A stretch of 17,341 bases of DNA from Armatimonadota bacterium (GTDB taxonomy: Bacteria > Armatimonadota > UBA10988), in contig JACRKZ010000165.1 of the NCBI GenBank assembly GCA_016235455.1, positions 1 to 17,341 of the forward strand, written 5' to 3'. Shown piece by piece: positions 1-17,340 of the stretch. Each line of letters opens with the position of its first letter. Position 1 is the first letter of the stretch. Position numbers and translations under genes: made by a program. The notes under the pieces are model-generated. The model was not told where the DNA came from and searched no databases. It saw nothing but the letters and a program-made list of their open reading frames with translations.

Positions 1-430
1 CAATACCCAGAAGCTGATCAGTGGCTCGCTGGCGACCACCGCCATGACGCTGCAGATCGGCGCCAACCAGAACCAGACGATCAGCTTCACCGTCATGACG
101 GCCACGGCCTCGAGCCTCGGCGTCAGCGGTCTGGCGGTCAGCACGCAGGCCAGTGCCGCCGCGGCCCTGGCCAGCATCGATGCGGCCATCAGCACGGTGA
201 CCACTGAGCGCGCCAAGCTCGGTTCACTGCAGAACCGGCTGGAGCGCACCATCTCCAACCTGGACTCCCAGGCGGAGAACCTGTCGGCGTCCGAGAGCCG
301 CATCCGTGATACGGACGTGGCCAAGGAGACCATCACCATGTCGCGCTTGCAGATTCTGCAGCAGGCTGGTGTGGCGGCGCAGTCGCAGGCCAACTCGGCG
401 CCGCAGGTGGTCCTGTCGCTGCTGCGCTGA
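1..430 (+). CDS. fliC: Flagellin copy 1 (5'-truncated by window edge)
   Basis: The frame is open from base 2 (NTQKLISGSLATTAMTLQIGAN...) to TGA at 428-430. It contains flagellin C-terminal motifs RAKLGSLQNRLE, ENLSASESRIRDTDVAKE and QILQQAG...QAN..PQ.VLSLLR. ATG 44 is an internal Met. Confidence 0.97.
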   Translation, partial: NTQKLISGSLATTAMTLQIGANQNQTISFTVMTATASSLGVSGLAVSTQASAAAALASIDAAISTVTTERAKLGSLQNRLERTISNLDSQAENLSASESRIRDTDVAKETITMSRLQILQQAGVAAQSQANSAPQVVLSLLR

Positions 431-554: not shown

Positions 555-581
555 TAACCCTCGCGCCGCGCCGGCCGATAG
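555..581 (+). promoter_or_regulatory. Sigma28 (FliA/SigD)-type promoter of flagellin 2
   Basis: TAAC(555-558)-N15-GCCGATAG(574-581) against the consensus TAAA-N15-GCCGATAA, directly upstream of a flagellin gene. Confidence 0.85.
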
Positions 582-588
582 ACCTGTT

Positions 589-664
589 GACGGGCCGGTA
601 AGCCCGCGGGCGAGTGTCTCGATTCTAGTTGTGAGACGCCGCCTGATAGTACGAGGAGACTTCC
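589..664 (+). promoter_or_regulatory. Structured 5' leader of flagellin 2 (two hairpins, TTCTAGTTGT loop, SD GAGGAG)
   Basis: CGGGC-N6-GCCCG (591-606); GTGTCTC-[GATTCTAGTTGT]-GAGACGC (614-639) with outer GGCG/CGCC; GAGGAGACTTCC-ATG. Confidence 0.6.
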
Positions 665-1489
665 ATGGCTTTCAGCATTCGCAACAACGTAACCGCCCTG
701 TTCACGCAGCGGAGCATGAGTGCGACGCAGTCGGAACTCAGCGGAGTGATGGAAAGGTTGTCGAGCGGGTATCGCATCAACAAGGCAGCTGACGACGCGG
801 CCGGCCTCGCTATCAGCGAGAAGCTGCGCGCCCAGGTGCGGGGCCTCAACCAGGCGTCGCGCAACGCCCAGGACGGCATCAGCGTCATCCAGACCACGGA
901 AGCGGCTCTGGGTGAAGGCGGCAGCATCCTGCAGCGCATGCGTGAACTGACGGTGGAGGCGGCCAACGACACGTTGACCAGCGGTGACCGCGCGAACATC
1001 CAGAAGGAGGTGGACGCGCTGCTGTCCGAGGTCGACCGGTTCGCCGGTGCGACCGAGTTCAACACGATGAAACTGATCAGCGGCTCGCTGGCCACCACCG
1101 CTATGACTCTTCAGATCGGTGCGAACAACGGGCAGACCATCAGCTTCACCGTGATGACCGCGACGGCGTCCAGTCTGGGCGTCAGCGGCCTGGCGGTCAG
1201 CACTCAGGCGAGCGCTGCCGCGGCCCTGGCCAGCATCGATGCGGCGATCAGCACGATCACCACCGAGCGCGCCAAGCTCGGTTCGCTGCAGAACCGCCTG
1301 GAACGGACGATCTCGAACCTGGACTCGCAGTCGGAGAACCTGTCGGCGTCCGAGAGCCGCATCCGTGATACGGACGTGGCCAAGGAGACCATCACCATGT
1401 CCCGCTTGCAGATCCTGCAGCAGGCCGGTGTGGCGGCGCAGTCGCAGGCCAACTCGGCGCCCCAGGTGGTGCTGTCGCTCCTCAAGTAA
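665..1489 (+). CDS. fliC: Flagellin copy 2, minimal 274 aa (D0/D1 only)
   Basis: ERLSSGYRINKAADDAAGLAISEKLRAQ, QASRNAQDGIS, LQRMREL, TEFN..KL and the C-terminal flagellin motifs; SD GAGGAG. Confidence 0.98.
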   Translation: MAFSIRNNVTALFTQRSMSATQSELSGVMERLSSGYRINKAADDAAGLAISEKLRAQVRGLNQASRNAQDGISVIQTTEAALGEGGSILQRMRELTVEAANDTLTSGDRANIQKEVDALLSEVDRFAGATEFNTMKLISGSLATTAMTLQIGANNGQTISFTVMTATASSLGVSGLAVSTQASAAAALASIDAAISTITTERAKLGSLQNRLERTISNLDSQSENLSASESRIRDTDVAKETITMSRLQILQQAGVAAQSQANSAPQVVLSLLK

Positions 1490-1519
1490 GGGGCGGCGAC
1501 AGGTAGCCGTGTTCACCAG

Positions 1520-1600
1520 CACGGCGCGGGCCGGTTCTCCGGTCCGCGCCGTGGCCTTTGGGGTAGCTCCCCGCCCGACTCGTCGGGCCGGGAGCTACCC
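1520..1600 (+). terminator. Two tandem hairpins after flagellin 2
   Basis: CACGGCGCGGGCCGG-TTCT-CCGGTCCGCGCCGTG (1520-1553) then GCCTTT; GGGTAGCTCCCCGCCCGA-CTCG-TCGGGCCGGGAGCTACCC (1561-1600). Confidence 0.6.
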
Positions 1601-1636
1601 TATTGGCGTATTTCACCCCACCTTCACGCCGGGAGC

Positions 1637-1663
1637 TCAAGTCCTCCCGCAGATGACCGAATG
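1637..1663 (+). promoter_or_regulatory. Sigma28-type promoter of flagellin 3 (variant)
   Basis: TCAA(1637-1640)-N15-ACCGAATG(1656-1663). The offset to the first leader hairpin is the same as in the other copies. Confidence 0.65.
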
Positions 1664-1670
1664 ACTGAGT

Positions 1671-1752
1671 ACCGGGCAATAGAGCCCGCGCGCGCGAGCA
1701 GTACGGCGGTTCTTGTCTGAGCCGGGGCAGCGCGCATAGATGGAGACTTGAC
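1671..1752 (+). promoter_or_regulatory. Structured 5' leader of flagellin 3 (two hairpins, TTCTTGT loop)
   Basis: CGGGC-N6-GCCCG (1673-1688); CGGC-[GGTTCTTGTCTGA]-GCCG (1704-1724) within GCGCGC/GCGCGC; ATGGAGACTTGAC-ATG. Confidence 0.55.
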
Positions 1753-2577
1753 ATGTCTTTCAGCATTCGGAACAACGTCACCGCGATGTTCACCCAACGG
1801 TCCATGACAAGCACGCAGGCTGAGCTTTCGGGCGTCATGGAGCGCTTGTCCAGCGGCTATCGCATCAACAAGGCGGCCGATGACGCGGCCGGCCTGGCCA
1901 TCAGCGAGAAGTTGCGCGCCCAGGTGCGGGGTCTGAACCAGGCTTCGCGCAATGCTCAGGATGGCATCAGTGTCATCCAGACCGCGGAAGCGGCGCTGGG
2001 CGAGGGCGGCAGCATCCTGCAGCGCATGCGTGAACTGACGGTGGAAGCCGCCAACGACACGCTGACCTCGGGCGATCGCGACAACATCCAGAAGGAAGTT
2101 GACGCATTGCTCTCCGAGGTGGACCGGTTCGCCAGTTCCACCGAGTTCAATACGCAGAAGCTGATCAGCGGCTCGCTGTCCAGCTCGGCGATGACGCTGC
2201 AGATCGGTGCCAACAACGGGCAGACGATCAGCTTCACGATCACCACGGCCACGGCCTCCAGCCTGGGTGTGAGCGGCATTGCCGTGAGCTCGCAGGCTAG
2301 CGCGGCGGCGGCCCTGGCCAGCATCGACGCGGCGATCACCACGGTGACCACCGAACGGGCCAAGCTCGGTTCGCTGCAGAACCGGCTCGAGCGCACCATC
2401 TCCAACCTGGACTCCCAGTCGGAGAACCTGTCGGCGTCCGAGAGCCGCATCCGTGATACGGACGTGGCCAAGGAAACCATCGCGCTATCCCGCTTGCAGA
2501 TCCTCCAGCAGGCCGGCGTGGCGGCGCAGTCGCAGGCCAACTCGGCGCCGCAAGCCATCCTGTCGCTGCTGCGCTGA
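1753..2577 (+). CDS. fliC: Flagellin copy 3, minimal 274 aa
   Basis: Same N- and C-terminal flagellin motifs as copy 2; SD GGAG upstream. Confidence 0.98.
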   Translation: MSFSIRNNVTAMFTQRSMTSTQAELSGVMERLSSGYRINKAADDAAGLAISEKLRAQVRGLNQASRNAQDGISVIQTAEAALGEGGSILQRMRELTVEAANDTLTSGDRDNIQKEVDALLSEVDRFASSTEFNTQKLISGSLSSSAMTLQIGANNGQTISFTITTATASSLGVSGIAVSSQASAAAALASIDAAITTVTTERAKLGSLQNRLERTISNLDSQSENLSASESRIRDTDVAKETIALSRLQILQQAGVAAQSQANSAPQAILSLLR

Positions 2578-2603
2578 TCGGTGCCCGGTAGCATGTGAAT
2601 AGT

Positions 2604-2641
2604 GTGCGGCGCGGACCCCCTGGGCCCGCGCCGCGCCATTT
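2604..2641 (+). terminator. Hairpin after flagellin 3, probable terminator
   Basis: GTGCGGCGCGGACCC-CCT-GGGCCCGCGCCGCGC followed by CATTT. It is related in sequence to the hairpins after the other copies. Confidence 0.5.
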
Positions 2642-2712
2642 GGGTCGGCGCCGCGAGTCCGAATACGACATGGGCCGGCATAGCCATTTCTGGCCCATTG
2701 TGGCTCTGTGAC

Positions 2713-2739
2713 TTAAGTGCGCGCAAGACTGGCCGATGA
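2713..2739 (+). promoter_or_regulatory. Sigma28-type promoter of flagellin 4
   Basis: TTAA(2713-2716)-N15-GCCGATGA(2732-2739). Confidence 0.82.
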
Positions 2740-2746
2740 GTCGAGT

Positions 2747-2827
2747 GACGGTCCTTGTAGACCGTCGAGCGTAGACGAGCGCCGGCTTCTAGTTGTCCCG
2801 GCGCCGCTTGGTTAGAGGAGACTTGAG
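2747..2827 (+). promoter_or_regulatory. Structured 5' leader of flagellin 4 (two hairpins, TTCTAGTTGT loop)
   Basis: GACGGTC-N6-GACCGTC (2747-2766); GCGCCGG-[CTTCTAGTTGTC]-CCGGCGC (2779-2804); GAGGAGACTTGAG-ATG. Confidence 0.6.
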
Positions 2828-3652
2828 ATGGCTTTCAGCATTCGGAACAACGTCACCGCGATGTTCACGCAGAGGTCCATGACAAGCACGCAGGCCGAGT
2901 TGTCGGGCGTCATGGAGCGCTTGTCCAGCGGCTATCGCATCAACAAGGCGGCCGATGACGCGGCTGGCTTGGCAATCAGCGAGAAGTTGCGTGCTCAGGT
3001 GCGGGGTCTGAACCAGGCTTCGCGCAATGCCCAGGATGGCATCAGCGTCATCCAGACCGCGGAAGCGGCGCTGGGCGAGGGCGGCAGCATCCTGCAGCGC
3101 ATGCGTGAACTGACGGTGGAGGCAGGCAACGACACCCTGACCTCGGGCGACCGCGCCAACATCCAGAAGGAAGTTGACGCGCTGCTGTCCGAGGTGGACC
3201 GGTTCGCCACATCCACCGAGTTCAACACGCAGAAGCTGATCAGCGGCTCGCTGTCCAGCTCGTCCATGACCCTGCAGATCGGTGCCAATAACGGGCAGAC
3301 GATCAGCTTCACCATTACCACGGCCACGGCCTCCAGCCTGGGTGTGAGCGGCATCGCCGTGAGCACGCAGGCCAGCGCGGCGGCGGCCCTGGCCAGCATC
3401 GATGCGGCGATCACCACCGTGACCACCGAGCGGGCCAAGCTCGGTTCGCTGCAGAACCGGCTCGAGCGCACCATCTCCAACCTGGACTCCCAGGCGGAGA
3501 ACCTGTCGGCGTCCGAGAGCCGCATCCGTGATACGGACGTGGCCAAGGAGACCATCGCGCTGTCCCGCTTGCAGATCCTGCAGCAGGCCGGTGTGGCGGC
3601 GCAGTCGCAGGCCAACTCGGCGCCGCAGGCGATCCTGTCGCTGCTGCGATAG
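2828..3652 (+). CDS. fliC: Flagellin copy 4, minimal 274 aa
   Basis: Same flagellin motifs as the other copies; nearly identical to copy 3; SD GAGGAG. Confidence 0.98.
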   Translation: MAFSIRNNVTAMFTQRSMTSTQAELSGVMERLSSGYRINKAADDAAGLAISEKLRAQVRGLNQASRNAQDGISVIQTAEAALGEGGSILQRMRELTVEAGNDTLTSGDRANIQKEVDALLSEVDRFATSTEFNTQKLISGSLSSSSMTLQIGANNGQTISFTITTATASSLGVSGIAVSTQASAAAALASIDAAITTVTTERAKLGSLQNRLERTISNLDSQAENLSASESRIRDTDVAKETIALSRLQILQQAGVAAQSQANSAPQAILSLLR

Positions 3653-3697
3653 TCCAGTAGCGCATCGCGGGCGGCCTACTGGTCGCCTGAGTGAGGT

Positions 3698-3739
3698 GCG
3701 GCGCGGCCCGGGCAACCGGGCCGCGCCGCTGTTCTTTTT
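3698..3739 (+). terminator. Rho-independent terminator after flagellin 4
   Basis: Perfect 14-bp stem GCGGCGCGGCCCGG-GCAA-CCGGGCCGCGCCGC with a GNRA tetraloop, followed by TGTTCTTTTT. Confidence 0.85.
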
Positions 3740-3934
3740 GTGGGCTACGGCGGGAGGCGGGCCGAGTCGGACCGCGCGTCCACAACGCGTGCCGCTTTGG
3801 TGGCCAGTATGGTATGAAGTGTCGTCGGTCTCCTTTGCGGGTCAGTCGATGGGCGAGCGAGCCGCATGTTTGGCTCGGCCGCGCCACGGCCTTCTTGTAC
3901 CGACCGACGTTGCTTGAGTAGGGAGGAGATGTCC

Positions 3935-4708
3935 ATGTCTTTCAGGATCCAGAGCAACCCGCTTTCGCTGCAGGGCCAGCAGGGGTTGACCGCGGCCCAA
4001 GGCGCCGGCGGCGCGGCCCGGACGGCAGCAGCGGCCAGGGGCCCGGCCGGCGGCACCGAGATGACCAAGCTGGCCATCGGCGGACAGCAGACCCAAGCGT
4101 GGAGCGCCAACGCCGCGTCGCGCGAGGTGCAGGAGGGCCTGAGCGTGCTGGGTACGGCTCGCAAGGGGCTCGACAACAGCTATGTCGTGCTCAACCGCAT
4201 GGAGATGGCGCTGAGCGAACTGGCCACCGGCGCCAAGACCGAGGCCGCCCGCGCGGACACCCAGAAGAAGCTGGCCGATCTGATGGCCGAGCTCGATAAG
4301 GTGGCCACCGACACGAACTTCAACGGCAAGAAGCTGTTGGATGGCTCCATGGCGCAGAACGGCATGCCGGTCCAAGTCGGCAGCGACACCTTCGCAGTCC
4401 GCTTCGCGTCGGCCTCGTCCCAGGGCCTGGGTCTGAGCGGCCTGTCGGTGAGCGACGACGCCAGTATGCAGAACGCCTTCAAGGCGGTGCAGACAGCGCA
4501 CCAATCACTCGTTGGCAGCAAGATGGACGCGGCCCAGAAGGAGATGGCGATCACCATGGCGGCCATCACGTCGGCCGGCGCATCGGGCCTGGAGGACGTG
4601 CAAGGCACGCTGGCGACAACGCGCTCGCAGATGCTCCAGCAGGCCGGCACGGCGGAACTGGCGCAGGGCAACGCGGCGCCGCAGGCGGTGCTGGCGCTGC
4701 TGCGCTGA
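3935..4708 (+). CDS. Divergent flagellin-like protein (257 aa)
   Basis: Start reassigned to ATG 3935 (SD GGGAGGAG 3921-3928; MSFRIQSN). It retains ASREVQEGLSVLGTA, LNRM, ELDKVATDTNFNGKKLLDGS, VQVG and QMLQQAGTAELAQGNAAPQAVLALLR, but lacks RLSSGxRINxAxDDAAG and RIRDxD. Confidence 0.88.
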   Translation: MSFRIQSNPLSLQGQQGLTAAQGAGGAARTAAAARGPAGGTEMTKLAIGGQQTQAWSANAASREVQEGLSVLGTARKGLDNSYVVLNRMEMALSELATGAKTEAARADTQKKLADLMAELDKVATDTNFNGKKLLDGSMAQNGMPVQVGSDTFAVRFASASSQGLGLSGLSVSDDASMQNAFKAVQTAHQSLVGSKMDAAQKEMAITMAAITSAGASGLEDVQGTLATTRSQMLQQAGTAELAQGNAAPQAVLALLR

Positions 4709-4753: not shown

Positions 4754-4784
4754 CGCGGCCCGGTGCGCCGGGCCGCGCTGGTTT
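4754..4784 (+). terminator. Hairpin after flagellin-like gene 5
   Basis: CGCGGCCCGG-TGCG-CCGGGCCGCG then CTGGTTT. The stem is identical to the inner 10 bp of the flagellin 4 terminator. Confidence 0.55.
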
Positions 4785-4834
4785 GGGTCGCGCGGGTTGC
4801 GGTGGTGAGCGGCTGCGTGGTACCTTCTGATTCG

Positions 4835-6766
4835 ATGGACACCTCGACTGCTCAACCGCAATCCAAACGCCGCAACCCCGGCGTCACGTGGCGCTCCGTG
4901 CTGCTCGCGCTGCTGCTCATCCCCGTCAACATTTACTGGGTTACGGTGGTCGAGGTGCGCTGGTACAGCCTGGACGGCAGTTGCCTCCCGCTGTTCATCA
5001 CGCCGGTATTCATCCTGTTCTGCCTGGTGCTGGCCAACCTCGGTGTGCGGCGACTGCGGGCCAGATGGGCCCTGGCCCAGGGCGAATTGCTGGCCACCTA
5101 CGTCATGGTGGTCGCCTCCAGCACCATCTCCGGCCACGACTGGTGGCAGAACTTCTTTGGCTCGGTGAGCCATCCCTTCTGGTTCGCCACGTCCGAGAAC
5201 CACTGGCAGGAGCGCTTCTTCCAGTACCTGCCGGTGTGGCTGGGCGTGCGCAATAAGGAAGTGCTGCGCGGCTTCTACCAGGGCAACTCGCAGCTCACGC
5301 CGGAGGTCTGGCAGGCCTGGGCCGTGCCGTTGCTGGTGTGGGGCATGTTGTCGGTGGTGATGATCATGATGATGTTGTGCCTCAATGTCATCGTCCGCCG
5401 CCAATGGGCCGAGAATGAGCGCCTGACTTACCCGATCGTGCAGCTCCCGCTGGCCATGACCGAGGAGTTCGGCACCAGCCTGCTGCGCAACAGCATCTTC
5501 TGGTACGGGTTCGCGCTGCCGGTGGTCATCGGCCTGTTCTGCGGCATGCACGCCTTCTTTCCGGCCATTCCCACGCTCAACGTCAAGCTCAACAGCCTGC
5601 ACCGCTACCTCCAGGGCCGGCCCTGGGACTTCATGGGTCAGGCCGACCTGTCGTTCTACCCGTTCATGATCGGGCTGGCCTACTTCCTGCCGCTCGATCT
5701 GAGCTTCTCGTGCTGGTTCTTCTATGTCGTGCGCCTCGGTCAGCAGATCGTCGGCGGCCTGATGGGCGGCGACACCGGTCGCTTCTTCCCGTTCCTCGGC
5801 GAGCAGGGCGCCGGCAGCTGGCTGGCGTTGGCCTTCATCGCGCTGTGGGGCTCCAAGGACTACCTGTGGCGCGTCATGCGCCAGGCGGTGCGCGGGCAGG
5901 AGTGGGAAGACGAGCCGCTGACCTACCGCGCCGCCGTGCTCGGGCTGGTGCTCGGCATGATCTACCTGGTGTGGTGGTCCACCAAGCTCAAGTGCGGCTG
6001 GTTCGTCGCGCTCAGCTTCTGGGTCATCTTCTTCCTGCTGTCGCTGGCCATGACCCGCGTGCGCGCCGAGCTGGGCGCGCCGCACGAGATCTACTTCGTC
6101 AACCCGCGGCGCATCATGTTCACGCTGGTGGGCACCTCGGCCTTCCGGCCCGAGGAGCTGACCTTCCTCTCGGCCACCTACTGGTTCAACCGCTGCTACC
6201 GCTGCCACCCCATGCCACCGCAGCTCGAGGCGTTCAAAATGGCCGAGAACGACCGCATGAACGCCAAGCGCCTGGCCTGGGCGCTGATCGCGGCCACCGT
6301 GTTCTCGCTGGTCGTCTGCTCCTGGGCCAACCTCAGCATCTGCTACGCCGACGGCGCCGCCAGCAAGTGCGGCGGGTTCAAGGCCTGGGTCGGCTGGGAG
6401 AGCTACAACGACCTCAGCCGCTGGCTGGAGGTGCAGCAGCCCGCCGACCGCGCCGGCACGGCCTGGATGGGTGGCGCGTTCATCTTCACCGTGGTCTGCA
6501 GCGCCATGCGCCGACGCTTCCTGTGGTGGCCGTTCCATCCGGCGGGCTACCCGCTGGCGGTCAGCTTCGCCATGGACTACTTCTGGTTCGCGGTGTTCGT
6601 GGCCTGGCTGCTCAAGGCCACGGTGCTCAAGGTGGGCGGCATGCGGCTGTACCGCAAGGGCATCCCGTTCGCGCTTGGACTCATTCTGGGCGACTACACC
6701 ATCGGCGCGATCTGGGCCATCATCGGGCCGCTGGTGCACATGCCGAACTACAAGATCTTCATCTAA
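4835..6766 (+). CDS. Polytopic membrane protein, DUF6785/DUF6784 family (putative transporter), ~643 aa
   Basis: Many hydrophobic segments, with motifs GVTWRSVLLALLL, ELLATY, RRQW.ENERLTYPIVQLP, IGLAYFLPLDLSFSCWFF, RVRAELG, WWPFHPAGY, LKVGGMRLYRKGIPFALGLILGD. Start taken at ATG 4835 (MDTST) rather than GTG 4763, which lies inside a hairpin. Confidence 0.8.
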   Translation: MDTSTAQPQSKRRNPGVTWRSVLLALLLIPVNIYWVTVVEVRWYSLDGSCLPLFITPVFILFCLVLANLGVRRLRARWALAQGELLATYVMVVASSTISGHDWWQNFFGSVSHPFWFATSENHWQERFFQYLPVWLGVRNKEVLRGFYQGNSQLTPEVWQAWAVPLLVWGMLSVVMIMMMLCLNVIVRRQWAENERLTYPIVQLPLAMTEEFGTSLLRNSIFWYGFALPVVIGLFCGMHAFFPAIPTLNVKLNSLHRYLQGRPWDFMGQADLSFYPFMIGLAYFLPLDLSFSCWFFYVVRLGQQIVGGLMGGDTGRFFPFLGEQGAGSWLALAFIALWGSKDYLWRVMRQAVRGQEWEDEPLTYRAAVLGLVLGMIYLVWWSTKLKCGWFVALSFWVIFFLLSLAMTRVRAELGAPHEIYFVNPRRIMFTLVGTSAFRPEELTFLSATYWFNRCYRCHPMPPQLEAFKMAENDRMNAKRLAWALIAATVFSLVVCSWANLSICYADGAASKCGGFKAWVGWESYNDLSRWLEVQQPADRAGTAWMGGAFIFTVVCSAMRRRFLWWPFHPAGYPLAVSFAMDYFWFAVFVAWLLKATVLKVGGMRLYRKGIPFALGLILGDYTIGAIWAIIGPLVHMPNYKIFI

Positions 6767-6795
6767 GTCCAAGGGGATGTCGTTGGAGACGATTC

Positions 6796-8775
6796 ATGCG
6801 CACAGCGCTGGTGTTGGGCTGCCTGCTGACCTTGCCCACCGTGGCGGCTGAGGACTTCGCGCCGCTCCTGGCGCGCTATCGGGCCACGCTGGGCGGGGCT
6901 CCCGCTTCGGCGGCCGACCGCATCGCCAGCCAACGGCCCGATGGCTCGTGGGCCGATGTGGACTATGCCAGTGGCGACCGCTCCAACTGGGGCGCCTCCA
7001 AGCATGTGGGCCACCTGCGTGCCATCGCCGCGGTCAACCCGCCCACCGTCGCGGCGACCCAGGCGCTGAACCGCGGGCTCGATTACTGGCGGCAGCACGA
7101 TTTCACCTGTCCCAACTGGTGGTACAACGAGATCGGCGTGCCGATGACCATGGCCGACATCGGCGTGCTGGCCTACGAGCGCATCTCACCCGAGAACCTG
7201 CGCTACCTGACCGGCACGGTGCTGCCGCGCGCCAAGATCGGCATGACCGGCCAGAACCGCGCCTGGGTGGCCGGCATCACCTTCATCCGCGGCCTGCTGG
7301 TGGGCGATAGCGAGCTGGCCAGCCGCGCCATGGGCGTGGTCATGGAGGAGCTTGTCGTCAGCGGCGCCGAGGGCCTGCAGCCCGACTGGAGCTTCCACCA
7401 GCACGGCCCGCAGCAGCAGTTCGGCAACTACGGCCTGGCCTTCGCCGGCGATATGAGCCGCTGGGCCGACCTGCTGCGCGGCTCGACGCTGGCCGTCGCG
7501 CCCGAGAAGATCAGCCTGCTGCGCAACTACGTGCTCAACGGGGAGAACTGGGTCTGCTGGCGCGGCTACATGGACCTCAGTTCCTGCGACCGGCAGATCA
7601 CTCCCGGCGCCATGCGCGGCAAGGGCCGCAGCGTGGCGGGCATCAACACCCGCATGGTCGGCGTCGACCCCGAGCAGGCGGCGGCCTACCGGGCCGGCGC
7701 CCAGCGCAATCAGCCCGGCGCGGTCAACGACCTGGTGGGCACGCGCTACTTCTGGCGCTCGGATTACCTGATCCATCGCCGGCCCGAGTTCATGGCCAGC
7801 CTGAAGATGGCCTCGCGCCGCGTGATCGGCGCGGAACTTGTCAACAGCGAGAACGTCTCGGGCTACTACCTGGCCGACGGCGCGCTGTTCTGCTACCGCG
7901 CAGGCGACGAACTGGAGGATGTGGCGCCGGTCTGGGACTGGCGCCGAGTGCCCGGCGTGACCTGTCCGCAAGGCACGCGCAGCCTGCGCCCGCCGGGCAA
8001 CCACCGCCTGCCCAGCGACTACGTCGGAGCCGCCTGCGACGGTCAGAACGGCGTGGTCATGCTCGACCTGGCGCGCGACGGCCTGTCGGTGCGCAAGCTG
8101 TTCTGCTTCGCCGGCGACCAGGTGGTCTGCCTCGGCGCGGGCCTCAGCTACCCCGGTGCGGAGCCGGTGACCACTTCGCTCTGGCAGCAGAGGCTGCGCG
8201 GACCGGTCAAGCTCAGCGCCGGCGGCGCCGCGCGCGAACTGGCCACCGGTCAGGAGACCATCGCCGATGCGCAGTGGCTGGAGCACGACGGGATGCGCCT
8301 GACGCTGTTGGAGCCGGCCCGGCTGGTGGTGCAGACGGGCCCGAAGACCGGCCACTGGCGCAACGTCTTCACCACCTCGGGCACGCCGCGCGACGATGTG
8401 ACGTTGCCCTTGTGCTCGGCCTGGCTCGACCATGGCACCAACCCGTCGGGCACCTTCGCCTACAGCCTGGGCACGCCGACCGCCGGCCCGGCCAAAATCA
8501 TCAGCAACACGGCGCTGGTGCAGGCGGTGCGCATGCCCGGCGGGCTGGTGGGTGCAACCTTCTGGGCCGCCGGCCGGCTCGACCTGGGCGACGGCCACAG
8601 CCTGGCTACCGATTTGCCCTGCGCGGTGCTCTTTGATCCCGCGACCGGCACGGCCACCGTGGCGGAGCCGACGCAGAAGTTCCGGACGCTGACGCTGACC
8701 GTGGACGGGGTGGCGCGGGCGGTGACGCTGCCCGTGGGGCTGGAGGCGGGGGCGTCGGTGGTGGTGAAGCGGTAA
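6796..8775 (+). CDS. Secreted polysaccharide lyase family 8 (chondroitin AC/hyaluronate/xanthan lyase-like), ~659 aa
   Basis: SD GGAG then MRTALVLGCLLTLPTVAA signal peptide. PL8 motifs DGSWADVDY, NWWYNEIGVP, TGQNRAW, EGLQPDWSFHQHG....GNYG, WDWRRVPGVT, VVCLGAG, WLDHG. Confidence 0.9.
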   Translation: MRTALVLGCLLTLPTVAAEDFAPLLARYRATLGGAPASAADRIASQRPDGSWADVDYASGDRSNWGASKHVGHLRAIAAVNPPTVAATQALNRGLDYWRQHDFTCPNWWYNEIGVPMTMADIGVLAYERISPENLRYLTGTVLPRAKIGMTGQNRAWVAGITFIRGLLVGDSELASRAMGVVMEELVVSGAEGLQPDWSFHQHGPQQQFGNYGLAFAGDMSRWADLLRGSTLAVAPEKISLLRNYVLNGENWVCWRGYMDLSSCDRQITPGAMRGKGRSVAGINTRMVGVDPEQAAAYRAGAQRNQPGAVNDLVGTRYFWRSDYLIHRRPEFMASLKMASRRVIGAELVNSENVSGYYLADGALFCYRAGDELEDVAPVWDWRRVPGVTCPQGTRSLRPPGNHRLPSDYVGAACDGQNGVVMLDLARDGLSVRKLFCFAGDQVVCLGAGLSYPGAEPVTTSLWQQRLRGPVKLSAGGAARELATGQETIADAQWLEHDGMRLTLLEPARLVVQTGPKTGHWRNVFTTSGTPRDDVTLPLCSAWLDHGTNPSGTFAYSLGTPTAGPAKIISNTALVQAVRMPGGLVGATFWAAGRLDLGDGHSLATDLPCAVLFDPATGTATVAEPTQKFRTLTLTVDGVARAVTLPVGLEAGASVVVKR

Positions 8776-8787
8776 GCTAGCAAAGCC

Positions 8788-8882
8788 GGGGCATGTTGTC
8801 CCGCCTTAAGGCGACTGGTGCTTCCACACGGGGCACCAGGTGCGAGCGTCCTGGGAGCGTGGCGCTCCCAGGACGTCGCTCG
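8788..8882. repeat. Cluster of short palindromes (REP-like) between convergent genes
   Basis: GGGGCA-TGT-TGTCCC; CGCCTTAAGGCG; CTGGTGCTTC-CACAC-GGGGCACCAG; perfect 13-bp CGTCCTGGGAGCG-TGG-CGCTCCCAGGACG. Confidence 0.55.
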
Positions 8883-9020
8883 AAGCGGCGGCTGCGACGT
8901 GGGACATGATGAGCCACTGGTGCCGTCTGATCCGAGCGGAATCGCCGTTCGCCTGAAGGCCGGGCCACGACCAGGCGACGACCGCCCAACCAGTCGCTCT
9001 CGCACCATGGAGTAACGATG

Positions 9021-9047
9021 GGATCGCCTGCAGCCTGGGGGCGATCC
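9021..9047 (-). terminator. Hairpin immediately after the stop of the 540-aa gene
   Basis: GGATCGCC(9021-9028)...GGCGATCC(9040-9047); no strong U-tract. Confidence 0.4.
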
Positions 9048-9051
9048 TCGC

Positions 9052-10674
9052 TTACTTCTCCGCCTCATGCCGCGTCGCAATCGGCACATACCCGATCTCA
9101 AAGCCCTTCGGCGGCGTGACGAGCTGCGCGGGATCGACATCGGCCAGCGTGCCCACCGTGGGCGGCGGCAAGTACTCGCGGTCCTTGGTCCAGCTGCGGT
9201 GCAGCATTTCCACCCGCTTCTGAAGCAACTCGCGCTCGGCATCGGTCAGGTCGGCATTGAGCAGCGCCGGCTGGTCGGCGAAGCGGTACCAGGAGTAGGT
9301 CACCACGCTGCCATCGCCCAGCCTGGCCTTGAACGGGCCGGCCACCGGGCCGGGCTTCTTCCAGCAACTGGTCGCGCTGTCCGGGGTGGTGTAGGGGTCT
9401 TCTACCTTCTCCTTGGGCCGGTCGAAGGTCAGCTTTTGCAGGCCGGTGTCGGCGGGCACCTGGTCGGCGGCGATGGGCACCCACTTGGCCGCCTTCGCGT
9501 CCGCGCCCGTCTCCAGCTTGAAGTACTCGGGCAGCGTGACCAGGGCGCCATCCTTGGTGTCGGTCTTGGTAGCCACCGAGTAGTCCCACCGGTAGCCAAA
9601 GGTGTTGGCGTCGATGGCGGTGGGCTTGGCGAAGCTGGGCCAGGAGATGGGCACCTTGCGTTCCTTGCCGTCGGGACCCGGCTCGCGGATCTCCCAGGTA
9701 GCGCCGCCCTGGCCGGGGAAGACCGTGATGCTGGCGCCCTTGGTGTCGACCTTGCCGCTGGCCGGCGGGCCCCCGTCGAACCAGGCACGCACCGCGTCGT
9801 ATAGCGCCGACTTGTTGTAGGCCGAGTTGCGGTGCACGAGCACCGAGTCGCCCTGGGCATCGCGCGGGAACGAGGTCGGCGCGATGCGGGCGTAGCTGTC
9901 GCCCTTGGCATCGGTGGCCATGCGGCACGGGATCCACTGGGTCTCCATCTGCACGTGGCGATTGGGCTCCACGGGCCGGCTATCGAGCAGCAGCCCGGCC
10001 AGGCGGCGCTCCTTGACGCTCGCATGTGACCAGAAGTTGGGCGTGAAGAACGCGACCGGGCCCTTGAAGTTGCCCGAGTTGAGGAACAGCGTCCAGCAGT
10101 TGCCACCAGTCGGCACGTCCACGCCATTGGTGGTGGCCTTGGGCTCGGTCAGCGGCAGGTTGAAATAGCCCCAGCCGAACAGCCCGCCACAGGCGCCCTG
10201 CTTGATGTTCAGCCCGTCGATGGGGAACAGCAGCCAGGGGCTGAGTTGCGCCACGCCATACAGGCCGCGCGGTTCCTCCCACGAGCCCCAGCCGTGCGCC
10301 GGGCCGTTGGCGATGTCTGAGAAGTTCGGGCCGACTCCGCCCATGATGAACTTGGGCGTCTCGGTGGGGAAGCGCGTGTCACGCCACCAGCCCAGCCCGC
10401 CCTCAACGTCGGAGTAGCAGTCCTTGGGCGCCTCGCCGTCGTACTGGGCGAACATCCAGGTGCCCGGCAGGCCGGTCTGATAGTTGTGACCGGGGTAGTT
10501 GCGCATCAGCGGCCAGGCGGCCACGTACATCGAATAGCCGGCGTTGTACTGTTTGTCGAAGCGCTCGCCGGTCGGGATGATCAGATATCCAGCCAGGTAC
10601 TCGTCCTTTGCCATAGCGGCCCCCATAGTCAGCAACGACAGCAGCAGCGCCATACTCGGTCGAATGGTGCGCAT
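9052..10674 (-). CDS. Secreted protein of unknown function, 540 aa
   Basis: Long ORF with GC-biased codon usage, signal peptide (MRTIRPSMALLLSLLTMGAAMA-K), SD AAGGAAG, and Trp/Tyr/Gly-rich sequence. No family recognised. Confidence 0.85.
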   Translation of the reverse strand: MRTIRPSMALLLSLLTMGAAMAKDEYLAGYLIIPTGERFDKQYNAGYSMYVAAWPLMRNYPGHNYQTGLPGTWMFAQYDGEAPKDCYSDVEGGLGWWRDTRFPTETPKFIMGGVGPNFSDIANGPAHGWGSWEEPRGLYGVAQLSPWLLFPIDGLNIKQGACGGLFGWGYFNLPLTEPKATTNGVDVPTGGNCWTLFLNSGNFKGPVAFFTPNFWSHASVKERRLAGLLLDSRPVEPNRHVQMETQWIPCRMATDAKGDSYARIAPTSFPRDAQGDSVLVHRNSAYNKSALYDAVRAWFDGGPPASGKVDTKGASITVFPGQGGATWEIREPGPDGKERKVPISWPSFAKPTAIDANTFGYRWDYSVATKTDTKDGALVTLPEYFKLETGADAKAAKWVPIAADQVPADTGLQKLTFDRPKEKVEDPYTTPDSATSCWKKPGPVAGPFKARLGDGSVVTYSWYRFADQPALLNADLTDAERELLQKRVEMLHRSWTKDREYLPPPTVGTLADVDPAQLVTPPKGFEIGYVPIATRHEAEK

Positions 10675-10700
10675 GACGTGATCTTCCTTGTCCGGAAACG

Positions 10701-10729
10701 ATTGTTGTCGCTGCGCGTGGGCGAGTCAA
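10701..10729 (-). promoter_or_regulatory. Putative sigma70-type promoter for the 540-aa gene
   Basis: Minus strand TTGACT-N17-AACAAT, ending 26 nt upstream of the ATG. Confidence 0.45.
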
Positions 10730-10748
10730 GTCGAATGCGAACAGCGGC

Positions 10749-11573
10749 TCAGGCGTGGTCGGCCGGGTAGAGCAGCGGGTTGAGCTCGCTGGCGGCCAGA
10801 TCGCCCGTCCGCAGGCCCGGCAACCAGCGCTCGAGATCGTCGATGCGGTTGGGGTTGTTGGTTGGCCCCACGCGCGTGCCGTCGGCGAAGTAGATGATGG
10901 TCATCACCTCGCGCAGCCGGTCGGTGGAGTTGCCGGGCGCGCCGTGCAGCGTCCAGCCGTAGTGGAACGTGGCGTCGCCGGCGCTCATGGCCTCGCCGGC
11001 CACCAGCGGGTAGCCGCGCTCGCGAACGAACTGCTCCAGCCGGGCCTCGGACTCATCGCTGATGGGCAGGTCGCCCAGCCAGCCGACATGGTGCGACCCA
11101 CTGGCGAAGTGCATCGGCCCCATCTCGGGGGTGACGTCCACCAGCGGCATCCATAGCGTGACCGTGTTGGCCGTATCGAGCGGCCAGTAGTGCTGATCCT
11201 GATGCCAGGGCGTGTAGCCGCCGCCGGGCTCCTTGAACAACGCCTGGTCGTGGTAGAGCCTCACGCCCGGCACGCCCATCAGCTCAGCCGCCAACCGCGC
11301 GAACCGCTCGGCGAACACGAACTCGCGCGCCCGCGCGTGGCGTGTCCACAGGTTCATACGCTGGAGGAAGGCCCGGCCGTAGGTGTCGCGCTCGGCCAGC
11401 GGCACGGTCTCTGGGGCGAACTGCTCGACGGCGGCCAGCAGTTCCGGCCGCCAGGCGACCATCTCCGCCGGGCTGGCCACGCCCGGCAGCCGCACATGGC
11501 CGTCGCGGCGGAAGGCGGCGATCTGCTCGGGGCTCAGCGGATAGGCCGACGCCAGTTGGGCACAATCAGACAT
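10749..11573 (-). CDS. Phytanoyl-CoA dioxygenase (PhyH) family Fe(II)/2-oxoglutarate dioxygenase, 274 aa
   Basis: Start at MSDCAQL (SD GAGG). Motifs LSPEQIAAFRRDG, LYHDQALFKEPGG.TPWHQD (HxD), LWMPLVDV...GPMHF..GSH, AGDATFH..TLHGAPGN.T..LR. Confidence 0.92.
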   Translation of the reverse strand: MSDCAQLASAYPLSPEQIAAFRRDGHVRLPGVASPAEMVAWRPELLAAVEQFAPETVPLAERDTYGRAFLQRMNLWTRHARAREFVFAERFARLAAELMGVPGVRLYHDQALFKEPGGGYTPWHQDQHYWPLDTANTVTLWMPLVDVTPEMGPMHFASGSHHVGWLGDLPISDESEARLEQFVRERGYPLVAGEAMSAGDATFHYGWTLHGAPGNSTDRLREVMTIIYFADGTRVGPTNNPNRIDDLERWLPGLRTGDLAASELNPLLYPADHA

Positions 11574-11726
11574 GGGGGCCTCTTCGGGTGTGAATGGCCG
11601 CCGCGGGCGAAGCGCCTGGGCAGCACGAACACTGTGGTGCAGGGAGGCGCCGCGGGCAGGAGAAGCGATCTGTCCCGGCGAACCAGCGCTGCAGCGGCGC
11701 CGTGGCGCGGCCGAGGAGAGAGCGCG

Positions 11727-13214
11727 ATGCCCAGCATGGACCGACGTGACTTCGTGAACTGGTTGGGGCTCGGCGCCTGCGCGCTGGTGGCCGGCTCGGC
11801 CCAGGCCCAGGCGGCCCGACGGCCCAACATCCTCTACATGATGTCCGACGACCATGCCGCCCACGCCATCTCGGCCTACGGCAGCCGGGTCAACCAGACG
11901 CCGAACATCGACCGGCTGGCCACGGGCGGCATGAGGTTCAACCACATCTACGCCACCAACTCCATCTGCACCCCGAGCCGGGCGACGATCCTCACCGGCC
12001 AGTACAGCCATGTCAACGGCGTGCCGGTGTTCAACCCGCTGCCCAACGACCGGCCGGTGGTTTCGGAGATGATGCAGGCCGCCGGCTACTGGACGTCGAT
12101 GGTGGGCAAGTGGCATCTGGGCAGCGACCCACGCGGCTTCGACCAGTGGGAGATCCTGCCGGGCCAGGGCGCGTATGTCGACCCGATGCTGTACAACGCC
12201 CAAGGCCGGAAGAAGTACACCGGCCATTGCACCGATGTGGTCACCGACATCGCGCTGGGCTTTCTGAAGGACCGGCCCCGCGACAAGCCGTTCTTCTCCA
12301 TGGTTCACCACAAGGCGCCGCACCGCAACTGGATCCCCGCCGAACGCCATGCCGCTGCCTGGCGCGACAAGGTCATCCCCGAGCCGGACACGCTGTTCGA
12401 CGACTATGCCGGCCGGGCCGACGCCATTCGCAACCAGAAGCAGTCCATCGCGCGCGACCTGACGCCCACCGACGTGAAGCAGGCGCCGCCCGCGGGCCTG
12501 GCCGGCGACGACCTGACGCGCTGGAAGTACCAGCGCTACATGCAGGACTACCTGGCCTGCGTGCAGGGCGTGGACGAGAGCGTCGGCCGCATCCTCGACT
12601 GGCTGGACACCGAAGGCCTAGCCGACAACACGCTGGTCATCTACACCAGCGACCAAGGCTTCTTCCTGGGCGACCACGGCCTGTTCGACAAGCGCTTCAT
12701 GTATGAGGAATCGGACCAGATGCCCTTCCTGGCGCGCTGGCCGGGGCACATCACGCCGAACCGGCAGTGCGATGCGCTGGGCATCAACTGCGACTTCGCG
12801 CCGACCTTCCTGGAGGTCGCCGGCCGCCCCACGCCGCCGACCATGCAGGGCCGCAGCCTCGTGCAGTGGATGGAGGGCCGCAAGATCGAGGATTGGCGCG
12901 ACAGCTTCTACTACCGCTACTACCACGATCCCGGCGACCACAACACAGCTGCGCAGTATGGCGTGCGCACCAACACGCACAAACTGATCTACTTCTGGCG
13001 GCTCGACCAGTGGGAATGCTACGACCTGACCAAGGACCCCAAGGAACTGCGCAACATCTACCACGACCCCGCGGCGCAGCCGGTCGTGGCGAAGCTCAAG
13101 GCCGAGCTGGCGCGGCTCAAGAAGGAAGTCGGCGACACCGAGGACCGCTACGCTCGGAACGAAGACTGGCCCAAGGGCGGCGTCGATGGCGGTCCTCGGC
13201 CAATCCGGCCCTGA
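11727..13214 (+). CDS. Tat-exported formylglycine-dependent sulfatase (S1 family; resembles hexosamine-6-sulfatase/S1_11 type), 495 aa
   Basis: SD GAGGAG; twin-arginine signal MDRRDFV...AQA; RPNILYMMSDDH, CTPSRATILTG (CxPxR), GKWHLG, HKAPH, YTSDQGFFLGDHG, ECYDLTKDPKELRN. The subfamily assignment is from memory of motifs. Confidence 0.93.
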   Translation: MPSMDRRDFVNWLGLGACALVAGSAQAQAARRPNILYMMSDDHAAHAISAYGSRVNQTPNIDRLATGGMRFNHIYATNSICTPSRATILTGQYSHVNGVPVFNPLPNDRPVVSEMMQAAGYWTSMVGKWHLGSDPRGFDQWEILPGQGAYVDPMLYNAQGRKKYTGHCTDVVTDIALGFLKDRPRDKPFFSMVHHKAPHRNWIPAERHAAAWRDKVIPEPDTLFDDYAGRADAIRNQKQSIARDLTPTDVKQAPPAGLAGDDLTRWKYQRYMQDYLACVQGVDESVGRILDWLDTEGLADNTLVIYTSDQGFFLGDHGLFDKRFMYEESDQMPFLARWPGHITPNRQCDALGINCDFAPTFLEVAGRPTPPTMQGRSLVQWMEGRKIEDWRDSFYYRYYHDPGDHNTAAQYGVRTNTHKLIYFWRLDQWECYDLTKDPKELRNIYHDPAAQPVVAKLKAELARLKKEVGDTEDRYARNEDWPKGGVDGGPRPIRP

Positions 13215-13221
13215 CTCTCCA

Positions 13222-13301
13222 ACCACAGAGGGCACAGAGGAACGACAGGAACTGCTCCTCCTGTTTTGCTGCTCCTCTGTGCTCTCTGTGTCCTCTGTGG
13301 T
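13222..13301. repeat. Inverted element of 9-bp-period CACAGAG/CTCTGTG repeats (REP-like; may act as bidirectional terminator)
   Basis: ACCACAGAG-GG-CACAGAG (13222-13239) ... CTCTGTG-CT-CTCTGTG-TC-CTCTGTG-GT (13275-13301), filling the gap between convergent stops. Confidence 0.75.
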
Positions 13302-13303
13302 CG

Positions 13304-16009: not shown

Positions 16010-17340
16010 GGCGCAAACAACTCCGGCAGCCGCCGCCGGATGAGCGCCTGGTCGTCGGCCGGTAGCGCGGTCAGCGGCGTCGGCTTGTCCTGCGGGCGTG
16101 TGCCCTTCTGGTTGATGCGGTTGAGCAGGCTCCAGTTGCGCGTGATGCCGGTCGGCTCGGCCGCATGCAGGTCGTAGCGCGTGAAGTCGATGACCGTCTC
16201 GGGGCCGTTGGCTTGCCAGTCGCGCAGCAGCGCCAGGCGGAAGTCGCGGTTCATGAACCAGCGGATCTCCAGGTTGGCGTCCGACCCGCCGATGCCGCTG
16301 CCGCGTTCGACGAAGCGGTAGTCCAGTCTGCTGTTGTCCGAGTGCTGTGCCCGGAACGCCTCGCCGAACTCACCCTCGGTGATGCAGCGCGCATCGGGCC
16401 AGCGCCGCCGCACCTCGGCGCCGTAGGCCGGCAGGTGCTCGGTGCCGCCGATGCTCACCTCCCAGATGACCGTCGCCCAGCCGAAGCCGTTGCGCCGGAA
16501 GCCGTCGTCGAAGTGCAGGCCGGTGGTGAAAACCTGCTCGGCCAGGCCCTTTTCGACGCCGTGGTGGCTGAGGATGGTCTCGATGGGTCCCAGGCCGAGC
16601 CGGCTATTGTGGCCCTCGGCGAAGCCCAGCCGGCGCGCGGCCAGGAAGTCGCACGACCAGCCGTCGAGGCAGACGCAGTCAATCAGGTCGGCCGCCTGCT
16701 GCGCGGGTTTGCAGTAGTGCTCGCGGCTGGGGTAGTAGGGATAGCAGATCGAGCCGTCGCCGTCGCCGTTGTCGATGCCGAACTGGCTCCAGATGGTGCC
16801 CTGGCAGACGTGGATGCCCTCCTGCTCGGCCAGGAAGCGCAGGTTCTCCGCGGCCAGGAAGCCGGCCACCACGCTCTTGGGCCGGTAGCCGCCGCCGACC
16901 ATCTCGCTGACCAAGGCCAGCCCGTCGTGCAGGTCGCGGTTGGTCTGCTCGCGGGTGTTGTGCATGGGCGAGAAGTAGGCGCCGGGGATGAAGGTGATCT
17001 CGTCGCCAAGCTCGCGCTGATAGGTCGTCACCAGGTGGCGAATGGCCACGTAGTTGGGCCGCGGGTCCTGCAGTGCCAGCCAACTCAACGCCCAGGTCAT
17101 GCGCGCGCCGGGGAAGGCCAGCGCCAGGTTCTCGCGCATGGCGCGCACGGCCTCGGGCGTGTGCAGCGCGGCTTCGTCGCTACCGGCGTTCTGCGTGCGC
17201 GTGACCTCGATCTGGTTGACGCGGATCAGGCCAACGAAGGTCAGGTAGCGACCGCCGAGCAGCGGCGTGGTGGGCGCCGAGCCGGCCGTGGCCAGGAGCG
17301 CGGCGGTGGACAGCAAGGCGCTGGCGGACGAGACGAACAT
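16006..17340 (-). CDS. DUF3863/DUF3864-domain secreted protein (start may lie beyond window)
   Basis: RYLTF...IRVNQIEVTR, MTWALSWLAL, GDEITFIPGAYF, GGYRPKSVVAGFL, QGTIWSQ..IDNGDGDGSICYPYYPSREH, RWFMNRDFRLALLRDW, VIDFTRYD, NWSLLNRINQKG.RPQD. The stop overlaps the GH95 start (ATGA). Confidence 0.78.
   Translation of the reverse strand: MFVSSASALLSTAALLATAGSAPTTPLLGGRYLTFVGLIRVNQIEVTRTQNAGSDEAALHTPEAVRAMRENLALAFPGARMTWALSWLALQDPRPNYVAIRHLVTTYQRELGDEITFIPGAYFSPMHNTREQTNRDLHDGLALVSEMVGGGYRPKSVVAGFLAAENLRFLAEQEGIHVCQGTIWSQFGIDNGDGDGSICYPYYPSREHYCKPAQQAADLIDCVCLDGWSCDFLAARRLGFAEGHNSRLGLGPIETILSHHGVEKGLAEQVFTTGLHFDDGFRRNGFGWATVIWEVSIGGTEHLPAYGAEVRRRWPDARCITEGEFGEAFRAQHSDNSRLDYRFVERGSGIGGSDANLEIRWFMNRDFRLALLRDWQANGPETVIDFTRYDLHAAEPTGITRNWSLLNRINQKGTRPQDKPTPLTALPADDQALIRRRLPELFAP

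Follow-up and report, generated by a model that had tools for sequence, protein, structure and literature searches.

A conserved non-GGA loop in flagellin leader hairpins of an Armatimonadota bacterium: a candidate operator at the position of a CsrA site

How is flagellin synthesis adjusted in a bacterium in which neither the CsrA-FliW nor the FlbT-FlaF genes can be detected? The question is raised by a stretch of 17,341 nt from a member of the Armatimonadota (GTDB UBA10988; assembly GCA_016235455.1, contig JACRKZ010000165.1), here called the window or contig C142, which starts with a tandem flagellin array. The assembly comprises 6.5 Mb and is 93% complete. An earlier note on the window had described two hairpins in the 5' leaders of these genes, the second presenting a conserved loop, and had proposed them as a new cis-regulatory element. 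We refer to the leaders of the flagellin genes starting at 665, 1753, and 2828 as leaders 1, 2, and 3, and to that of the divergent gene starting at 3935 as the fifth leader; two additional flagellin 5' ends lie at contig ends (C164:12632 and C6:48954) and provide the C164 and the sixth leader. Our analysis indicates that the loop motif and its hairpin are very probably a selected, flagellin-specific leader element that acts in the transcript. With a rough probability of 0.45, we propose that the hairpin may serve as the operator of a trans-acting factor controlling translation initiation, in place of the upstream CsrA site.

Direct reading reproduced every sequence and coordinate of the earlier note. 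The 10-nt motif TTCTAGTTGT lies at 623-632 and 2787-2796, and the shorter form TTCTTGT at 1710-1716 and, as had been claimed for the divergent fifth gene, at 3892-3898. The distance from the end of the motif to the ATG is indeed 31-36 nt in each leader of the window. Genome-wide, TTCTAGTTGT gave three matches on the forward strand and none on the reverse strand (C142:623, C142:2787, and C164:12589). All three copies are in flagellin leaders on the sense strand and start at -42, -41, and -43 relative to the ATG, respectively; a reversed control word gave 6+4 matches in the genome. TTCTTGT has 274 copies genome-wide, with an expectation of about 0.003 per 130-nt leader, and begins at -43 both in leader 2 and in the fifth leader, which apart from these seven letters does not align to the other leaders. 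Of the genome's 13 sigma-28-like promoter-plus-open-reading-frame (ORF) candidates, the motif is present in no more than two, the flagellin leaders, and the fliS promoter is without it; the motif is no general mark of the sigma-28 regulon.

The earlier note had called the spacers between the flagellin genes otherwise unalignable and the stems of hairpin 2 entirely different. Neither description holds. Leaders 1, 3, and C164 align end to end with a mean column identity of 79%, so their stems are homologous, and they differ by compensatory substitutions. Two invariant runs stand out in this alignment, the motif with 10 nt and AGGAGACTT at the ribosome-binding site with 9 nt; no other run exceeds 4 nt. 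The inner stems read GUGUCUC/GAGACGC, GCGCCUC/GAGGCGC, and GCGCCGG/CCGGCGC, with pair changes from U-A to C-G, C-G to G-C, and U-G to C-G. Two helix pairs have changed on both sides when counted on the alignment, and a third double change, from U-A to G-C, is masked by an alignment gap and was read by eye. Across the 13-pair helix, 89.5% of the cells pair, a fraction that drops to 39-53% once the 3' partners are shifted by 1-3 columns. Of the signature that had been proposed, loop conservation with stem turnover, the constant loop over changed arms stands, whereas the turnover amounts to two to three compensatory changes in homologous stems.

Letters shared among tandem paralogues might also be a functionless relic of recent duplication or gene conversion. 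The three full copies are paralogues with leaders this alike, and with ~57% of the columns invariant, a run of 10 nt is unlikely only to a moderate degree (~0.02, an estimate made with the two conserved blocks removed from the column count). However, both arms beside the loop have changed and the loop has not, which a conversion tract cannot achieve; the 7-mer is kept at -43 in the otherwise unalignable fifth leader, and the motif core is kept in a genome of another genus (G004) and in a variant from an RNA library, both described below. We regard a mere relic as highly improbable.

In minimum-energy and centroid folds, the motif is in the apical loop of a 13-14-bp hairpin in leaders 1, 3, and C164, with unpaired probabilities mostly between 0.8 and 1.0. 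In leader 1, where hairpin 2 alone has a folding energy of -18 kcal/mol, 9 of the 10 nt are unpaired with a probability of 0.75-1.0. The z-scores of the hairpins alone are -3.71 in leader 1 and -4.65 and -1.20 in the other two full copies. The motif is predicted to be single-stranded within a stable hairpin in these three leaders. Hairpin 1 conforms to its earlier description in the three ordinary leaders of the window: its core, at 591-606, 1673-1688, and 2749-2764, begins 10 nt past the -10 box, closes a 6-nt loop, and reads CGGGC/GCCCG in leaders 1 and 2 and CGGTC/GACCG in leader 3, which has a U-A pair where the other two have G-C. The C164 copy folds into an imperfect hairpin 1, and relatives, too, place a hairpin right after the -10 box in our folds.

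The position of hairpin 2 can be compared with that of CsrA sites in the phylum. Our collection holds six species genomes of the family, five of them with flagellins 75-79% identical to those of the window. We found csrA and fliW in none of the six (completeness 72-95%; five of six with flagellin; control genomes positive), and csrA, fliW, flbT, and flaF were all not found in the 93%-complete source genome (G000), with a Caulobacter control positive for flbT and flaF. Both csrA and fliW were found in all 15 flagellin-bearing genomes of other families among 40 relatives surveyed, often adjoining the flagellin gene. In 13 of 18 leaders of these other families, a hairpin with GGA in its loop ends 18 nt or more before the AUG, at -20 to -57 and typically with the loop CAGGAAG; within the family, such a hairpin is present in just one of 14 leaders, where it falls into the promoter -35 box. 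In leader 1 and the C164 leader, hairpin 2 has its end at -33, i.e., within this range, and therefore occupies the place of the relatives' CsrA site.

The layout is that of a CsrA-type flagellin operator without the defining GGA loop, and neither csrA and fliW nor the FlbT/FlaF genes were found. The CsrA-FliW operators of B. subtilis hag and C. jejuni flaA (SL1/SL2; PMC4894983) share with our leaders a sigma-28 promoter, a short leader, and an invariant-loop hairpin 5' of a conserved ribosome-binding site, as well as ~21 nt between the loop site and the site in the ribosome-binding region and stems kept by compensatory changes. They differ in that the loop here is UUCUAGUUGU. None of the motif hairpins has a GGA, or the CsrA loop sequence ANGGA, in its loop, and with csrA and fliW not found in any of the six family genomes, the view that the loop is not a CsrA GGA site is supported. 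A second GGA does occur in GGAGAC at 655-660, 1742-1747, and 2817-2822, trivially so, as it would for any GGAG Shine-Dalgarno sequence.

The relatives themselves merit a remark. Loci L017-L040, from other families, combine hairpins with CAGGAAG-type loops and AAGGAGGA Shine-Dalgarno sequences, and in several relatives fliW-csrA lies directly 5' of flagellin, e.g., in G028:C185 and G019:C157. Judged by sequence, this is an ordinary CsrA circuit, in a phylum for which we found no description of it.

The following course of events would fit the leader hairpin as an operator. If, as we infer, transcription starts at the sigma-28 promoter and the RNA rather than the DNA is read, the leader would be ~77-84 nt long. 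Its 5' end would fold into the small hairpin 1, probably a stabiliser, and hairpin 2 would hold UUC(UAG)UUGU single-stranded 41-43 nt before the AUG and ~20-25 nt before the conserved UAG...GGAGAC ribosome-binding region. There, the loop would be recognised by a trans-acting factor, most likely a protein. Its binding and the direction of control are likewise what we infer; the factor would set flagellin translation or mRNA lifetime and thereby take the role that the GGA hairpin and CsrA-FliW have elsewhere in the phylum.

A second UAG accompanies the loop. Within the family, 12 of 14 flagellin leaders have a UAG between -28 and -9, compared to 12% of all GGAG-N5-9-ATG sites in the genome. In 12 of 14, it is placed 0-6 nt 5' of the GGAG Shine-Dalgarno sequence, in a frame that varies relative to the start codon. 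For the three full copies, direct reading gives 21-23 nt between the UAG of the loop and the one adjacent to the Shine-Dalgarno sequence; CsrA bridges its loop site and its site in the ribosome-binding region over ~18-21 nt (PMC4894983). It is conceivable, although doubtful, that the family replaced the CsrA-FliW checkpoint by a new regulator reading a non-GGA operator at two UAG-bearing sites ~21-23 nt apart, one in the UUCUAGUUGU loop and one directly before the Shine-Dalgarno sequence. Two sites in this arrangement would be suited to a dimeric RNA-binding protein, which would keep ribosomes from entering until flagellin export is possible.

The same letters allow for a switch without any factor, in which UUCUA of the loop would pair with UAGAG/AGGA at the ribosome-binding site and mask it, the loop being a copy of the cell's own 16S tail (CCUCCUU-UCUAG). 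The 3' end of the 16S rRNA gene (G000:C178, ~26046-26070) reads GGATCACCTCCTTTCTAGGG, and the loop motif opens with UUCUAG, the six letters that follow the anti-Shine-Dalgarno sequence, so that loop and 16S 3' tail CCUCCUUUCUAG have this word in common. The frequent UAG 5' of the Shine-Dalgarno sequence would fit as well, and 7 bp are possible between the loop of leader 3 and UAGAGG. However, the 6-mer match was spotted post hoc, only 3-4 bp are possible in leader 1 and in the C164 leader, and in all five leaders the duplexes between loop and ribosome-binding site are matched by those of 53-80% of shuffled loops. An intramolecular switch is quite unlikely on these numbers. The 16S tails of relatives were not recoverable; the sole pattern match, in G004, has no 16S-like sequence before it.

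We also considered pairing of the loop with 16S rRNA itself and rejected it: the best duplex, near the 3' end, reaches -11 kcal/mol, but 49 of 100 shuffled loops equal it. As for a partner within the coding sequence, AAC AAC codons at +19 to +24, which could pair with GUUGU, occur without variation in the 13 ordinary flagellin starts that we compared and so leave no covariation to score; the fifth gene has AGC AAC.

An element that works without any factor would be a U-rich standby or enhancer site kept open in a 65%-GC mRNA, or a stabiliser of an abundant mRNA. The motif keeps a fixed distance to the AUG (-41 to -43), is pyrimidine- and U-rich, and is single-stranded even without a hairpin in the fifth leader; no regulator candidate was found in the flagellar neighbourhoods scanned, and hairpin 1 at the inferred 5' end suits a stabiliser, by comparison with known 5'-terminal stem-loops. 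On the other hand, a standby or enhancer site requires a composition and not ten invariant letters; these letters include CTAG, which is ~10-fold depleted (4064 copies in 13 Mb on both strands, with an estimated expectation), and the remaining sigma-28-promoter candidates are without the motif. We therefore rate a factor-independent role as rather unlikely.

If the loop is read by a partner, this might be a small antisense RNA (sRNA) in a kissing interaction, as an exposed, invariant 10-12-nt loop is a typical seed target. But the 10-mer does not occur on the reverse strand of the genome, its few complements of 8-9 nt are located in ordinary sequence whose contexts give no sign of an sRNA gene, and Hfq was not found in the 93%-complete genome. 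An sRNA is thus a very unlikely reader of the loop.

How far does the element reach beyond the source genome? In G004, which belongs to another genus of the family, a hairpin GCGUC-ACUUCCAGUUGGA-GACGC is found at -46, and its 3' arm GAGACGC is the same as that of leader 1. The core TTCCAGTTG sits in a homologous hairpin, though the fold can pair part of the motif; as a word, TTCCAGTTG is uninformative, with 26-99 matches per genome. G003 has TTCAAGTGG, one mismatch away from the motif, in a 5' hairpin, and the leaders of G005 contain nothing convincing. In G002 (locus L041 on G002:C141, with flagellins L041:3357 and L041:2247 on the minus strand), two paralogous leaders have an identical 8-nt hairpin loop, ACAGUUGC. 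These hairpins begin 9-10 nt past the -10 box, and their stems differ, by eye, by U-A to C-G and C.A to A-U. The G002 pair looks like a parallel case of a constant loop over a varying stem in another genus, and it shares AGUUG with the motif of the source genome. The earlier note had expected the motif in leaders of related genomes; one clear homologue, that in G004, meets this expectation, whereas the motif is otherwise confined to the source genome.

Random 120-nt windows of the source genome contain TTCNAGTTG exactly in 0.18% and with up to one mismatch in 2.9% of cases. Exact TTCTAGTTG matched four times in the five other family genomes, in no case with a flagellin start in the 100 nt shown. 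The 192 flagellin leaders from other phyla gave no exact TTCNAGTTG and 10 one-mismatch matches, near the 2.9% expected at random. Scans of named genomes and of metagenome contigs with flagellin yielded relatives of at most 60% and 53% identity, respectively, all from other phyla, and it is these that supplied the 192 leaders. No Rfam 15 family, preQ1-I, fourU, and flg-Rhizobiales included, matched the leaders in a covariance-model search even at E≤10. The six matches obtained at this threshold are all far under their gathering scores and none covers a motif hairpin; two fall in spacers between flagellins, at 1485-1628 on the minus strand (24.5 bits vs. a gathering score of 191) and at 3631-3738 (17.1 vs. 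70). Among the papers listed on Armatimonadota flagellin and on the flagellin untranslated region, FlbT, CsrA, and FliW, we saw no description of the motif, and none of those on Armatimonadota dealt with regulation.

For 2769-2875, i.e., hairpin 2 and the gene start, there are contigs from four metatranscriptomic libraries of bioreactor communities; such contigs are assemblies that can contain DNA and cannot show 5' ends. The greater part of the window, leaders 1 and 2 included, is without such a contig, which speaks neither for nor against the element. In one of them, GGAGACTTGAG...ATG is joined at 2816 to a different upstream sequence, which keeps CTAGTTGT and continues with a new arm, GACGGCGC. 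This contig would represent a related strain or a paralogue that keeps the motif core.

The family's flagellins reach up to 60% identity with flagellins of Actinomycetota, Chloroflexota, and Firmicutes, whereas identity with flagellins from the phylum's other families is 24-45%. The flagellin of the family, or its complete filament module, may therefore have an origin different from that of the CsrA-controlled one.

Several observations weigh against a loop that is read as an operator. The earlier note had hairpin 2 presenting the motif in a loop in each case, which is correct for leaders 1 and 3, and for the C164 leader, but not for leader 2, in which the proposed CGGC/GCCG stem with a 13-nt loop does not form in the minimum-energy fold. 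There, the UUC of the motif is paired (unpaired probability 0.14-0.22), and a 6-nt loop, UUGUCU, is left. In the fifth leader, no hairpin encloses the motif and the whole-leader z-score is +1.18; the sixth leader, on contig C6, does not contain the motif, and in G004 the motif can be partly paired. Hairpin 2 of leader 3 alone (z -1.20) is not more stable than its shuffles, and the whole-leader z-scores are modest, between -0.8 and -2.5 (-0.82 in leader 2). The covariation that the earlier note had named as a test is not significant: 60 of 500 shuffles of the three paralogues reach the observed score, three sequences being too few for significance. A covariance model (R1) built from the three copies recovered only its training sequences in the six family genomes at E≤1, apart from two weak matches with E of 0.13 and 0.89, and the other genera of the family give at most a loose resemblance to the motif. 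Among flagellated bacteria, many lack FliW with no dedicated replacement known, so that csrA and fliW not being found does not in itself require a new regulator.

Furthermore, folding does not favour the sense strand over the antisense strand (sense better in one hairpin, worse in one, and equal in one), so folding energy is no proof of a role as RNA. This would also be compatible with a DNA operator bound by a transcription factor 3' of the promoter. Yet apart from CTAG the motif has no palindromic symmetry. The inverted repeats on either side of it change in sequence without losing their pairing, which is relevant to RNA and not to a DNA-binding protein, and the register is fixed to the AUG rather than to the promoter. 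A DNA operator is the least credible of the explanations considered here.

Finally, a scan of the flagellar neighbourhoods (the fliS, flgM-flgK, and flhA-flhF-fliA clusters) revealed only standard flagellar and pilus domains and no binder, a further point on the negative side. The same neighbourhoods contain three ORFs without a confident Pfam match (107, 145, and 284 aa), next to flgM and fliA. Of the suggestion that the loop may mark a different post-transcriptional regulator, it can be retained that a real element without GGA exists on the sense strand and is restricted to flagellin leaders, but no binder was identified.

Other known systems resemble parts of the putative operator. PreQ1-I and similar riboswitches likewise place a ~40-nt hairpin just 5' of the Shine-Dalgarno sequence, and one preQ1-I aptamer has UUCUAG in its loop; they differ in that the leaders have no Rfam match. 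Stem-loops at the 5' terminus stabilise mRNAs, e.g., in the ompA leader. Hairpin 1 is like these in its place, which in three leaders is ~3 nt past the inferred 5' end, but stabilisers of this type would account for hairpin 1 only. In Salmonella, FljA represses fliC mRNA. There, as may be the case here, a specific protein recognises the leader of a flagellin mRNA in a cell with several flagellin genes, whereas the Salmonella system is part of a phase-variation circuit. As cited in PMC4894983 and PMC13277936, FlbT/FlaF acts on Caulobacter fljK mRNA as a protein regulator on a flagellin 5' UTR (untranslated region), again with several flagellin paralogues. The difference is that flbT and flaF were not found here.

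The features of the array and its leaders are listed in Table 1. The class-3 flagellin promoters recognised by sigma-28 (FliA) have the consensus TAAA-N15-GCCGATAA. The C164 copy has exactly these boxes by direct reading, and the ordinary flagellin genes are preceded by boxes of this type in a genome that contains both fliA (232.7 bits vs. a cut-off of 189.6) and flgM, as expected for sigma-28 flagellin promoters. The genome also encodes FliS and a diderm-type flagellar cluster. For the divergent flagellin, no sigma-28 -35 box could be recognised, and the five other family genomes contain no specific orthologue. In Caulobacter, a specialised flagellin paralogue is a translational co-repressor; by analogy, the divergent flagellin is a candidate partner of the leader element.

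Table 1. Coordinates of flagellin genes, promoters, and leader features in the window.
Feature	Position	Strand	Basis
Flagellin coding sequence (CDS), 3' fragment	2-430	+	direct reading
Sigma-28-type promoter of flagellin 665-1489, TAAC-N15-GCCGATAG	555-581	+	direct reading; regex match C142:+555
Hairpin 1, leader 1: CGGGC-CGGUAA-GCCCG, ~3 nt from inferred 5' end	591-606	+	minimum-energy folds
Hairpin 2, leader 1: 14 bp, one bulge; apical loop AUUCUAGUUG, motif 623-632	607-645	+	folds
UAG (647-649) followed by Shine-Dalgarno GAGGAGA (653-659), leader 1	647-659	+	direct reading
UAG in leaders; also in leaders of loci L041, L015, L034, L042, L014	647-649, 1737-1739, 2813-2815, 3919-3921		
Flagellin CDSs, 274 aa each, Flagellin_N and Flagellin_C	665-1489, 1753-2577, 2828-3652	+	direct reading and domain search
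Weaker sigma-28-type promoter of flagellin 1753-2577, TCAA-N15-ACCGAATG	1637-1663	+	direct reading
Hairpin 1, leader 2: CGGGC-AAUAGA-GCCCG	1673-1688	+	folds
Composite hairpin, leader 2, with deletion variant UUCUUGU (1710-1716), UUC paired	1690-1735	+	folds
Sigma-28-type promoter of flagellin 2828-3652, TAAG-N14-GCCGATGA	2714-2739	+	direct reading
Hairpin 1, leader 3: 8 bp, core CGGUC/GACCG, loop CUUGUA	2746-2767	+	folds
Hairpin 2, leader 3: GCGCCGG/CCGGCGC and outer helix; loop CUUCUAGUUGUC, motif 2787-2796	2773-2808	+	folds
UUCUUGU at -43 of the fifth flagellin, single-stranded after two small hairpins	3892-3898	+	folds
Divergent flagellin paralogue, 257 aa, 34% identical to its neighbours	3935-4708	+	Flagellin_N only, 5.5e-11

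Upstream of the C164 flagellin, a gap of ~1.3 kb (L206, G000:C164, 11310-12631) contains no convincing ORF. The frame of this flagellin leaves that of its paralogues after residue 173, near the contig end (13150-13372), which probably reflects an assembly break in the repeated array, and C164 may join the start of C142. The part of the window 3' of the flagellins (4763-17340) is a polysaccharide-utilisation stretch without flagellar genes. It encodes a DUF6785/DUF6784 membrane protein, a PL8 lyase, a PhyH-domain protein, a sulfatase, a GH95 protein with an NPCBM domain, and DUF3863/3864.

Motile cells make few proteins in larger amounts than flagellin, and only a small number of couplings of its synthesis to export are known: CsrA-FliW, FlbT-FlaF, and FlgM-sigma-28. 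A lineage without detectable CsrA-FliW or FlbT-FlaF genes keeps an operator-like hairpin at the position of its relatives' CsrA site, with a different, invariant loop. If nothing reads this loop, the leaders would be an example of how a highly expressed leader is rebuilt after the loss of CsrA control. If a factor does read it, the family would have a third type of flagellin translational checkpoint, and the loop sequence would be the bait with which to find that factor.

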